Below are positions 43,910-46,665 of a stretch of 64,000 nucleotides of DNA, piece by piece. Origin of the DNA: Dictyostelium discoideum (taxonomy: Eukaryota); NCBI GenBank assembly GCA_000004695.1, contig CM000151.3:1856001-1920000 (forward strand). The letters are read 5' to 3'. The translations under genes and the position numbers were made by a program. The number at the start of each line of letters is the position of its first letter. Positions within the stretch are counted from its first letter, which is position 1. Under the pieces are notes generated by a model. That model had not been told where the DNA came from, ran no database searches, and saw only the letters and a list, made by a program, of their open reading frames with translations.

Positions 43910-44961
43910 CTATTTTTTATTTATTGTTTTATTTTTTAGAGATTTTTTTTTTAATTTTTGACATTCTTGGATTAAATCTAATTGATAATTTGCAATTTCT
44001 TCAACTTTGTCTTTAATTAAATTTTGTTTTGAAGTAATTGATTTAAATTGATCTTTGATAGGAGATAAATCAAAATCAATTTTTAAATTTGCTTCCAACT
44101 TTTTGAATTCAAGAACCTTCTCTTTTAATTCATGATATATTAATTTTGTTGTTTCATCAGTTACTTGGGAGATTAGTTCTATATTTTCCATATAATAGGA
44201 AAGAAGAGATTTTAAAGTTTTCAATTTTTTATCTCTTGCTACTGATTGCTTGTAAAATGAAATAAAAGCACCAACAAGGCAACCAAATGTTAAAAGTACT
44301 GGAGCACAAATAGGCGCAACAACTGATAGTGAAGTGGCTCCTACAGCGATCAGAGACGTGACACCAACAGCTTCAGTAGCTCCAATCGCAGTTACACTAC
44401 CAATTCCTAAAAATCCTGATATTACCCCAAACAAAGATGAGAACTTGGTAAGAAATTGAGACTTTTCTGCTTTATCAATTCCTTGAAATAGTTTTTTGGA
44501 GTTTTCAAAAAAAACATCGATTTTCTTTTTTAATTCTTCATCATTAACATTTTTTTCAGTAAATTTATTTGTTAACCCATCTATATTTTTCAATAAGGGG
44601 TCGATAAGTTTATCAATCATTGAACTTATCTCTTTTATTTTCTCTTGGTCATTTGATTGAATTTCTTTTTTATTCTCCAAAGTTAGTCTTTCAATTGTAC
44701 TAATTTGAGATTCTAATACAATTATTTCCACATCAATTATATTAACCCTTGTACTAAAGCTTGTTAATAATTCATTTAATAAACTATTGTTTATTGACAT
44801 TTCGATCATTAATTTTTTTAAAACCAATTTTTCTTTATCATTTTGTTGAGTTAACATTGTTTTGATTTTATCCATTGAATCAAATGCGATTTGAAAAGCT
44901 TCTCCATTACTTTTTGTTTTGGGATCTGCTTTTTTAATAATTGTTAAAGAATTATTATTTT

Positions 44962-44965
<4 letters not shown>
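43910..44965 (-). CDS. Coiled-coil protein with a central 50-aa Gly/Ala/Val-rich hydrophobic hairpin (predicted membrane-inserting); divergent paralogue of 45589..46665.
   Basis: 351 aa. K/E/L/I-rich heptad-like N-terminal and C-terminal halves. The centre reads FSSLFGVISGFLGIGSVTAIGATEAVGVTSLIAVGATSLSVVAPICAPVLLTFGCLVGAFISFY. The start codon abuts a 91-nt poly(dT). Confidence 0.5.
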
Positions 44966-45047
<82 letters not shown>

Positions 45048-45055
45048 TTGTTTAT
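44965..45055. repeat. 91-nt uninterrupted poly(dT) on the plus strand (poly(dA) in the 5' leader sense of the minus-strand gene), lying between two divergently transcribed paralogues.
   Basis: Direct reading of the sequence. Further A/T homopolymers lie at 45121..45150. Confidence 0.9.
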
Positions 45056-45119
45056 ATAGTTATAATTTTTTATTTTTGAAAATTATAATTTAATTGTTTT
45101 GGTTGTTTGTATAGCAAAA

Positions 45120-45152
<33 letters not shown>

Positions 45153-45588
45153 TAAAAATTAATAAAAATAATTCAACACAATTTTGAGGAAAATTTATTT
45201 TTTGTAAAATACATTGACCTACCAAAATACCCAAAAAATAAATTGATGAGTTAAAAATAAAATTTTACCCACATATTCAAAATAAATAAATAAATATATT
45301 GTATGTTTTGTAAAATCCAACCAATAAAAAACATTTGCTAAGCAGAATACACAAAGTAAAAAAATAATTTGATAAGTTAAAAATAAAAATTCACCCACAT
45401 GCATTGTATTTTTTTTTTCAAGGCAAAATAACTTATTATTTTAAGAAATTTATAAATTTTACATTTATGTTATAATTGTTTTTGTTTTTATTTTTAATTT
45501 TATTTTTATTTTTTAATTTTTACATATTTTCATTAATATATTAATATAAAAATATATTTTTATAACAAGTAATTTCCTTTTTTATAAA

Positions 45589-46665
45589 ATGGGAAATAAA
45601 AATTCATTGGAACAAAGTGATGGTGCTGGTGATGGTGCTTGTGATTTAATTCCAGACTTTAAAGAATTTGACAAAGATGAAGAATTTGTAAATGTTGTTA
45701 AAAATTTTTTAATAGTTTGTGAAAAAATAATGAAAAAAGAAAATAAAAACTTTTTGGAGAATCAAAATGAATTAATAAAATTAATTTCAAAAACAATCAA
45801 ACAAAGTAAATATTTTGGGGAAATTTCATCAAATATTTCCAAAAATTTAATTAATATAAGAGAAAATTATCTATTGGTTGCCAAAAATCAAATAAATTCT
45901 TCAACAAATAAAGTAGTTAAAGCATTGGAATTAAAAATTGATATTGGAAAAGTGGTGAAAATGGTTAATGTTGGTAAAGATCTCAAAATTGGAGTGCCAA
46001 AATTAAAAGAGATACAATCACAATTAAAAAATTTTACTGAAAGAATTAATTCTCAAAAAGATAATTTATTTTATAAAAAATTAATTAAATTTTTTAAGTT
46101 ACAAGGCAAAATAGATGATAAAAAAAAACCTATTAGTTTATTTGTAGTTGGTGTTTGTAGTGTCCCAGCTGGAGTTATTACTGCGTCCGTTGTTATTACA
46201 ATAGGTTTGTCTGCCTTTCCATTTACAATTCCGGTTTCTGTTTTTATATTAGGCTGTGCAACAACACTAATTTGTTTAATAAATAAATCAATCAACACTG
46301 GTAGAATATATGATCAGTTCATTGAAACAATTAGTTTTATTTCAAGTCAACTAGAAGCTTTCATTTCTCATCTTTCGATTTGTGCAAATGATTTTTGTAA
46401 TGGCTTAACAAAAAGTCTTGAACTGCTAGAAAAATCGGATGACAAGGTTGTTTCAATTGAGCATGTGGATGCAAACATAAAAATAGTTGATAATATATTA
46501 AAAAAAATTCAAACAATTCAAACTCTTTCAAAACAATTGGAATCATATGAAGAATGTTTAAATGTTAAAGGTACAGGATGGAATTTCATGAGATCAATTG
46601 GATTTTCATCTCAATCACAATCCTCGTCACCAACTTCATCATCACAATCTATGGTTAAAAAATAG
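45589..46665 (+). CDS. Coiled-coil protein with a central hydrophobic hairpin and a candidate N-myristoylation signal (MGNKNS); paralogue of 43910..44965.
   Basis: 358 aa with the same tripartite layout. The hydrophobic core reads ISLFVVGVCSVPAGVITASVVITIGLSAFPFTIPVSVFILGCATTLICLI. Gly2/Ser6 fits the myristoylation consensus. Low-complexity Ser/Gln C-terminus. Confidence 0.5.
   Translation: MGNKNSLEQSDGAGDGACDLIPDFKEFDKDEEFVNVVKNFLIVCEKIMKKENKNFLENQNELIKLISKTIKQSKYFGEISSNISKNLINIRENYLLVAKNQINSSTNKVVKALELKIDIGKVVKMVNVGKDLKIGVPKLKEIQSQLKNFTERINSQKDNLFYKKLIKFFKLQGKIDDKKKPISLFVVGVCSVPAGVITASVVITIGLSAFPFTIPVSVFILGCATTLICLINKSINTGRIYDQFIETISFISSQLEAFISHLSICANDFCNGLTKSLELLEKSDDKVVSIEHVDANIKIVDNILKKIQTIQTLSKQLESYEECLNVKGTGWNFMRSIGFSSQSQSSSPTSSSQSMVKK

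Follow-up and report, generated by a model that had tools for sequence, protein, structure and literature searches.

A lineage-restricted, head-to-head gene pair of Dictyostelium discoideum encodes putative hairpin-anchored helical-bundle membrane proteins

In proteins with the topology of the ClyA toxin, a hydrophobic head lies between pairs of long helices. The animal apolipoprotein L proteins (ApoL1-6), which are about 330-400 amino acids (aa) long, have amphipathic helices arranged around a central hydrophobic helix-loop-helix; those of them that are intracellular work on membranes from the cytosolic side, and the family evolves fast with gene gain and loss. At the level of gene layout, tgrB1 and tgrC1 are a divergently transcribed and co-regulated pair of Dictyostelium genes. 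Here we describe two adjacent genes, DDB_G0272716 (gene A) and DDB_G0272714 (gene B), in a 64,000-nucleotide (nt) stretch of D. discoideum AX4 chromosome 2 (contig CM000151.3, positions 1,856,001 to 1,920,000; hereafter the window). We judge it reasonably probable, though far from assured, that A and B are a lineage-restricted, divergently transcribed pair of cytosol-facing, hairpin-anchored helical-bundle membrane proteins. The reading builds on the following results: both genes are real, conserved together as a pair and under purifying selection, their products have the architecture described below and fall into no known family, and a promoter element is conserved.

Both genes are real: their open reading frames (ORFs) are intact and are conserved with a ratio of nonsynonymous to synonymous substitution rates (dN/dS) below 1. 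An ORF scan placed A and B head-to-head with a spacing of 623 bp (Table 1), in exact agreement with the positions, strands and layout that an earlier note had read from this DNA, and the translations bore out the two N-termini that it gave. Exact-sequence look-up identified protein A as XP_644865.1/Q86IJ0, labelled 'Transmembrane protein DDB_G0272716' and 100% identical to the AX4 protein, and protein B as XP_644866.1/Q86II9, labelled 'hypothetical protein DDB_G0272714'. The chromosome 2 record carrying DDB_G0272716 is 8.48 Mb long. In a second D. discoideum assembly (GCA_054883475.1), A and B are each called as single-exon genes with products identical to those of AX4. Nor are the ORFs products of chance, because at the 21% GC of the window about 9% of random codons are stops; from this stop frequency (~0.09 per codon), the probability of 351 consecutive open codons in the window's base composition is ~1e-15. 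The earlier note had suggested that the pair may be an undescribed family. With regard to function this stands, as no paper in the library that we searched by gene, protein and accession identifiers names DDB_G0272716 or DDB_G0272714, and a search for ClyA or ApoL together with Dictyostelium returned nothing relevant; the genes themselves, however, were already annotated, as hypothetical or transmembrane. Scans of the window for tRNA genes and Rfam families were empty.

Table 1. Coordinates of the A/B gene pair, its protein features and its intergenic elements. Positions refer to the window unless a residue range or another sequence is named.
Feature	Position	Strand	Remarks
Gene A, DDB_G0272716	43910..44965	-	Intronless coding sequence, 351 aa, start MENNNS
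Gene B, DDB_G0272714	45589..46665	+	Intronless coding sequence, 358 aa, start MGNKNS (45589-45606)
Hydrophobic core of A	44252..44443	-	Residues 175-238, 64 aa; from hydropathy and uncharged stretch
Hydrophobic core of B	46129..46284	+	Residues 181-232, 52 aa; from hydropathy and uncharged stretch
Predicted helices of A	Residues 20-40, 45-103, 107-137, 142-165, 242-289, 301-349		
Perfect T81 tract	44965-45045	+	A80 leader directly before the ATG of A on the A sense strand
Candidate TATA box of A, TATATAAA	45051..45058	-	Read from sequence, just upstream of the A-run; putative TATA box
42-nt direct repeat, copy 1	45233..45274		TGTGGGT at 45267-45273 (- strand) is a fit to the GBF response element
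42-nt direct repeat, copy 2	45359..45400		Holds TGTGGGTG (45393-45399, - strand)
Conserved 18-nt element TTCTTAAAATAWTAAGTT	45430..45447	- (as read)	Inverted repeat CTTAA-N4-TTAAG
Copies of TTCTTAAAATAWTAAGTT in other loci	L001 7593-7610 and 10849-10866; L002 7719-7736; L005 (GCA_054883475.1) 5587-5604		
Unitigs L007/L008 of the frameshifted lineage	Match 45491-46770		
Unitigs L009/L010 of the frameshifted lineage	Match 44984-43859		

Both proteins are organized around a central hydrophobic core with K/R-rich, net-positive flanks on either side. The earlier note had described a central segment long enough for a hairpin, and this is what we find, with 64 aa in A and 52 aa in B that are uncharged apart from one residue. 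That single charge is the invariant E198 of the A core, in which G209, P218 and P222 (AP-x-C-AP) are invariant as well; the invariant residues of the B core are G206, L207, S208, P211, T213, I214, P215, G222 and C223. Gly, Ala, Ser and Thr make up ~47% of the A core and 35% of the B core. Most of the flanking helices display an amphipathic alpha-helical periodicity of 98-101 degrees (z up to 4 versus shuffles), in keeping with the amphipathic halves that had been proposed.

The N-termini of A and B are hydrophilic and contain no segment resembling a signal peptide. In the alignment of B orthologs, residues 1-6 are invariant and adjoin a hypervariable tail, and the MGNKNS sequence is kept in 4/4 B sequences and also in A of D. 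dimigraforme. When scored with the N-myristoylation pattern G-{EDRKHPFYW}-x-x-[STAGCN]-{P}, B (MGNKNS) matches and AX4 A (MENNNS), which has no Gly2, fails, so that the two copies differ in this motif as the earlier note had it. An AlphaFold2 model of A, made from a shallow family alignment, reached a predicted template modelling score (pTM) of 0.67 and depicts the halves that the earlier note had called coiled-coil as an elongated intramolecular antiparallel helical bundle. The last five of the helices in Table 1 are long and are modelled with a predicted local distance difference test (pLDDT) score of 80-91. Along the chain, one helix and two long helices precede the hydrophobic head, and two further long helices come after it.

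The make-up of the cores also bears on a second topology, in which A and B would be monotopic hairpin proteins of the endoplasmic reticulum (ER) or of lipid droplets, in the manner of oleosins or caveolins, with the cytosolic bundles serving as scaffolds or tethers. The long uncharged domain, with its proline-containing turn, would then be buried in a single leaflet or monolayer. At 52-64 aa the uncharged domains do exceed a minimal two-pass hairpin; furthermore, both families have kept a P-x-x-x-P motif that is reminiscent of the proline knot of oleosins, and the flanks are positive on both sides. However, this motif is off-center, with 43 and 16 residues on its two sides in A and 30 and 17 in B, and the invariant E198 falls within the A domain. 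A search of Pfam returned no lipid-droplet or ER hairpin family, and the fast evolution and dispensability of the pair (see below) would be unusual for structural scaffolds. We therefore consider both the monotopic assignment and burial in one leaflet distinctly doubtful, and return to a hairpin that enters or crosses the membrane after presenting the evolutionary evidence.

A and B are likely to be distant paralogs. The term 'paralogue pair' in the earlier note holds with a qualification, namely that the relationship is invisible to BLASTP (24% identity, E = 0.64, with an alignment that is collinear across 342 columns) and draws moderate support from shuffle-controlled profile comparison and collinear motifs. 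Comparison of the A and B family alignments by hhalign gave E-values of 5e-4 (local) and 6e-5 (global). As a control, the columns of the B alignment were permuted within the N-terminal flank, the hydrophobic core and the C-terminal flank in 40 shuffles. The real global score of 23.4 compares with 4.4 ± 2.7 when all three regions were shuffled (0/40 reaching the real score) and with 4.6 ± 4.3 when only the flanks were shuffled (1/40), and the real local score of 35.1 compares with 21.0 ± 4.2 for shuffling of all three regions (0/40).

The motifs that A and B have in common are collinear and comprise MGNKNS, K-x-x-L-x-x-QN, ID, G209/P218, (Q/K)S directly after the core and QL-x4-EC near the C-terminus. 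In addition, the P-x-x-x-P motifs of the two cores (P218/P222 in A and P211/P215 in B) are matched up by hhalign. Because MGNKNS is found in all B proteins and in D. dimigraforme A, this N-terminus reads as ancestral to both A and B, with Gly2 lost in the AX4 A lineage.

The A/B family is restricted to a few sibling species, where it is known only as hypothetical proteins. Among 5.8 billion proteins searched with single sequences and with profiles, the only relatives came from 'D. discoideum' ACTFIR, D. cf. discoideum and D. dimigraforme and from short Logan fragments. An exhaustive hmmsearch of 1.84 billion cluster representatives with family A yielded only close Dictyostelium sequences and fragments, as did a profile search with family B, and no third paralog was found in AX4. 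D. dimigraforme has kept the head-to-head pair at ~50% protein identity with an intergenic region of 439 bp. In D. cf. discoideum (locus L001, 6360-12500), the pair has been duplicated in tandem as a unit to give the order B-A-B-A. The two A copies share 74% and the two B copies 65% amino-acid identity, with a synonymous rate (dS) of 0.19-0.25 and a dN/dS of 0.77-0.83. One of these B copies has a C-terminal truncation and is 327 aa long.

Substitution rates were calculated by the method of Nei and Gojobori. The dN/dS ratio was 0.35-0.83 in every pairwise comparison, out to a dS of ~1, and the range of 0.35-0.67 seen between species indicates purifying selection overall. At the same time, the nonsynonymous rates of A and B are the highest in their neighborhood: in the comparison with D. 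cf. discoideum, the two genes have a dN of 0.12-0.20 and their neighbors one of 0.01-0.075, and with D. dimigraforme the corresponding values are 0.34-0.37 and 0-0.13. Some 40-codon windows have a dN/dS above 1, although this estimate is noisy. A and B are fast-evolving genes under overall purifying selection.

The pair also turns over quickly. In ACTFIR, a clean deletion of ~1.9 kb (window ~45045-46967; L004 9922-9936) has removed the intergenic region and all of B. Gene A is intact in this strain (348 aa), and the left breakpoint of the deletion is the poly(dT) run in front of A, which may be a fragile or recombinogenic site. In a further lineage that is ~96% identical to the window and is sampled by unitigs from SRR26869267, SRR26869268 and SRR28564541, both genes carry reproducible frameshifts. 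In A, codon 7 is hit by a loss of 10 nt and codon 198 by a loss of 2 nt; B has a net gain of 1 nt near codon 40, lacks 4 nt at codon 233 and another 2 nt at codon 295, and carries a G2E substitution. A and B thus appear to have been pseudogenized jointly in this lineage. We had considered the Logan contigs as evidence for expression; this was rejected, because their ends fall at homopolymers and their identity to the window is ~96%, which marks them as genomic unitigs from a divergent lineage. Given the duplication, the deletion of B and the joint frameshifts, the A/B module is dispensable and subject to quick turnover.

These losses could be taken to mean that A and B are decaying or functionless orphan ORFs, paired by the accident of a local inverted duplication and simply not yet lost. 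Frameshifts in both genes of one lineage, the missing B of ACTFIR, the fairly high dN/dS of 0.4-0.8 with local windows above 1, and the confinement of all homologs to a narrow clade are each in line with such a fate. Against it, four lineages with dS values of up to ~1 between them have intact ORFs while dN/dS stays clearly below 1, and the proteins retain invariant motifs, both the MGNKNS beside its hypervariable tail and the Pro and Gly positions of the core. Furthermore, a promoter element has been conserved, and the whole pair was duplicated with both copies retained. We consider decay very improbable.

The four intergenic regions that we compared have a GC content of ~12%, and their alignment contains one sharply conserved block, TTCTTAAAATA(A/T)TAAGTT, with the inverted repeat CTTAA-N4-TTAAG. 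In AX4 it corresponds to the 18-nt element TTCTTAAAATAWTAAGTT, which occurs a single time in the 64-kb window against a chance expectation of 0.02. Across three lineages, every A-B intergenic region holds exactly one invariant copy of this element at 141-157 nt before the ATG of B, and it was not found elsewhere in the fetched loci. We regard TTCTTAAAATAWTAAGTT as a candidate transcription-factor site in the promoter of the pair. On the sense strand of gene A, the order of elements is the TATATAAA box, A80 and the start codon.

Between this box and the 18-nt element lie two copies of a 42-nt direct repeat that are 90% identical and spaced 126 nt apart, each ending in ACCCACAT (TGTGGGT on the other strand). 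CCCACAT occurs in the whole window at the two repeat copies only. The consensus of the GBF G-box is (T/G)G(T/G)G(T/G)G(T/G), and GBF sites lie between oppositely oriented genes in group 2 of the sigN genes (PMC2257962). Both GBF-like boxes are conserved in pair 1 of D. cf. discoideum. If functional, they would predict post-aggregative, GBF-dependent co-expression of A and B. The best reading of these intergenic sequences is that A and B would be co-regulated from a shared control region of 0.4-0.75 kb.

The earlier note had placed a 91-nt homopolymer inside the shared promoter. By count, the run is 81 nt long, and it abuts gene A, where the A of the ATG pairs with the first T of the run. Because it is 543 nt away from the ATG of B, T81 is the leader of A and not the center of a shared promoter. 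The window has 51 runs of at least 20 nt, and this one, the longest, is odd in its length only; the tract is typical Dictyostelium intergenic DNA. In GCA_054883475.1, in which the coding sequences are identical, the same run is 19 nt long. Across window positions 37500-51500, runs of at least 20 nt are shorter in that assembly in 6/8 cases and longer in none (81 to 19, 34 to 27, 32 to 23, 25 to 21 and, twice, 24 to 20), and 13/14 runs below 20 nt have the same length as in the window. The discrepancy is systematic, and therefore one of the two assemblies misreports long runs, either by compression in GCA_054883475.1 or by inflation in the reference. ACTFIR has an interrupted A-rich tract of ~83 nt before the ATG of A, which suggests that AX4 does have a leader of about this length. 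In other species, the position is taken by A26 or by an A-rich stretch, or has no such tract. The emphasis placed on the homopolymer was overstated, since its length and position were wrong, and the run lacks conservation and is probably not reproduced from one assembly to the next.

From these observations, we infer a model in which A and B are all-alpha proteins of ~350 aa that would be made in, and remain exposed to, the cytosol, because they have no signal peptide. Four to five long amphipathic helices would fold into an antiparallel bundle, and the small-residue-rich segment of 52-64 residues would enter or cross the membrane as a helical hairpin, with both helical halves staying on the cytosolic face. 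B would be N-myristoylated, and ancestral A presumably was too; the invariance of positions 1-6 beside a hypervariable tail is hard to explain otherwise. Finally, A and B may associate with each other and work together as a two-component membrane-associated module. Such cooperation is probable because the genes share a control region and are inherited, duplicated and lost together. The job of the module would be lineage-specific and dispensable, and given the high evolutionary rate, the copy-number change and the dispensability, a developmental, social or defense role would fit better than housekeeping.

Several results weigh against parts of this model. The hydrophobic region of A (residues 167-241) has a pLDDT below 50, and the AlphaFold2 model of B is unusable (pLDDT 34), and for this reason the proposed hairpin topology derives from hydropathy and charge distribution alone. 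Gly2 is missing in AX4 A. The presence of an intact A without B in ACTFIR counts against an obligate heteromer. The hhalign probability for A versus B is only 31-37%, which leaves the support for paralogy moderate and not decisive. At the promoter, the degenerate GBF pattern is frequent in the window, with 39 matches versus 25 ± 5.6 expected, so that the GBF-like boxes are a lead only.

The earlier note saw no sequence-level family match, and our searches agree. Pfam searches with both proteins and with all nine family members, at E-values up to 10, and NCBIfam searches with four family members returned nothing above noise; sequence-profile searches of the PDB with family A, family B and both jointly produced only low-complexity and coiled-coil noise (AopB, E = 0.28; NASP, E = 0.005); and, as described above, the hmmsearch of cluster representatives and the second profile search reached only close Dictyostelium sequences. 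One candidate, DUF5063, matched 4/4 B proteins and was rejected, as its best E-value was only 0.0098 and well below the gathering score.

When the A model was compared with the PDB by Foldseek, chains of the ClyA superfamily made up 40 of the top 50 matches and represented 11 different proteins; among the best were HblL1 (E = 0.025) and the ClyA pore (probability 0.99, TMq 0.38). None of the PDB matches had an E-value below 0.001, TM-scores were 0.12-0.38, and no full-length ApoL structure was among the matches. Foldseek against BFVD gave no match. The helix order of A fits the ClyA-type topology and is a reasonable analogy to it, yet it would equally fit any antiparallel four-helix bundle with a central hairpin, and because the same order is expected of any such bundle, the likeness to ClyA is an analogy and not a proven membership.

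The fold matches raise the alternative that A and B form a two-component intracellular alpha-pore-forming system with the build of the ClyA superfamily (XaxAB/YaxAB, Nhe, Hbl, AhlABC) or an ApoL-like action. In such a system, the bundle would hide the hydrophobic head, swing it into a target membrane and then oligomerize. Possible targets would be a bacterium-containing vacuole or the amoeba's own membranes in stalk-cell death or social conflict. Apart from the Foldseek matches, what speaks for a pore former is a mid-sequence hydrophobic segment with a predicted pair of long helices on each side, the placement seen in the ClyA superfamily, the Gly/Ala/Ser/Thr content of the cores (35-47%), the encoding of the components by adjacent paralogs, and a rapid evolution, copy-number change and loss that are typical of conflict genes. 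The structural scores, however, are those given above, and sequence comparison lends no help: hhalign of A1 and A2 with E. coli ClyA gave a probability of 0.2%, and homology to ClyA by sequence was rejected. No Pfam match to HlyE or HBL was found in the nine family members, or to ApoL (PF05461) in any member, at E-values up to 10, and no ClyA, Hbl or Nhe family member was recovered by PDB sequence profiles with A1, A2 and A4. The head region, which would be decisive, is the part of A that lacks a confident model, and a secreted toxin is excluded by the missing signal peptide together with the conserved myristoylation motif. We regard a pore-forming system, and likewise the proposed mechanism of head insertion, as unlikely. 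A more specific version, in which a home-grown or anciently acquired two-component ClyA-like module, cytosolic and targeted by myristoylation, is directed against intracellular bacteria or used in developmental or social killing, strikes us as a long shot. If true, this toxin architecture would gain its first member that is eukaryotic and acts from the cytosol, and the variation of wild strains in presence/absence and copy number would be a sign of ongoing conflict.

Returning to the hairpin-anchored pair as the preferred reading, A and B are an uncharacterized, lineage-specific pair for which the fold analogy is only suggestive. If the proteins proved to be membrane-permeabilizing, they would extend the ClyA- or ApoL-style helical-bundle pore former to the amoeba's own cytosol and, with just two small genes that lack introns in an organism with easy genetics, would offer a tractable model of cell-autonomous immunity or developmental cell death. 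Otherwise, the locus is a compact case of orphan membrane proteins that are born, duplicated, deleted and pseudogenized among sibling Dictyostelium lineages. In either case the candidate promoter element of 18 bp is sharply conserved and directly testable.

The genes on either side of the pair were noted as well. Between B and a gene with a NOG1_N domain, at approximately window 46931-47833 on the minus strand, the second assembly calls a multi-exon gene of 166 aa. It has no Pfam match, and successive Val codons (VVVVVVVV) are found in the region; in ACTFIR, the DNA of this region is still present and is not called as a gene. Downstream of A, window 42545-43240 on the plus strand holds an ORF of 231 aa for a highly acidic, low-complexity protein rich in Lys, Gln and Pro. 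Gene calls for this neighbor are 281-300 aa in other assemblies; it has no Pfam match and keeps a conserved synteny beside genes for a proteasome lid subunit (JAB/RPN11-type) and a Proteasom_PSMB protein.

Among described systems, the ClyA superfamily (ClyA/HlyE, XaxAB/YaxAB, NheABC, Hbl, AhlABC/SmhABC, MakA) is like A and B in size, at ~300-370 aa, and may be like them in its elongated antiparallel bundle of long helices with a hydrophobic segment in mid-sequence, between the second and third long helices. Its multipartite toxins are encoded by adjacent paralogous genes, a feature also seen in A and B, where the pair is conserved in three lineages. In contrast, the members of this superfamily are secreted toxins of bacteria, whereas A and B are eukaryotic, have no signal peptide and carry a conserved N-myristoylation motif, and any action of theirs would therefore come from the cytosolic side. 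The gene layout differs too, with ClyA-type toxins in an operon and A and B head-to-head, and the comparison yields no sequence or profile similarity and only non-significant structural scores.

The central hydrophobic helix-loop-helix with amphipathic flanks of ApoL also appears in A and B, but this arrangement is generic and not specific to ApoL, and the modelled helices of A, at 48-59 residues, are much longer. Proteins of the oleosin/caveolin type have in common with A and B a long uncharged central domain with conserved prolines and, as predicted for A and B, both ends in the cytosol; A and B differ from them in the off-center proline motif, the invariant Glu of the A domain, the large bundles on both sides and the lack of a family match. 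The A and B proteins resemble known membrane-active proteins in kind, belong to none of these families by any sequence-based test that could be applied, and differ from them in being, by prediction, cytosolic and myristoylated. With regard to the locus, the closest likeness in layout is to divergent pairs of Dictyostelium such as the sigN group 2 genes, which are likewise head-to-head and have a short intergenic region with G-box-like elements (PMC2257962). While the proteins encoded by the sigN-group and tgrB1/tgrC1 pairs are unrelated to A and B, and a role in allorecognition has no support for the latter, these pairs are like A and B in their lineage specificity, fast evolution and variable copy number.

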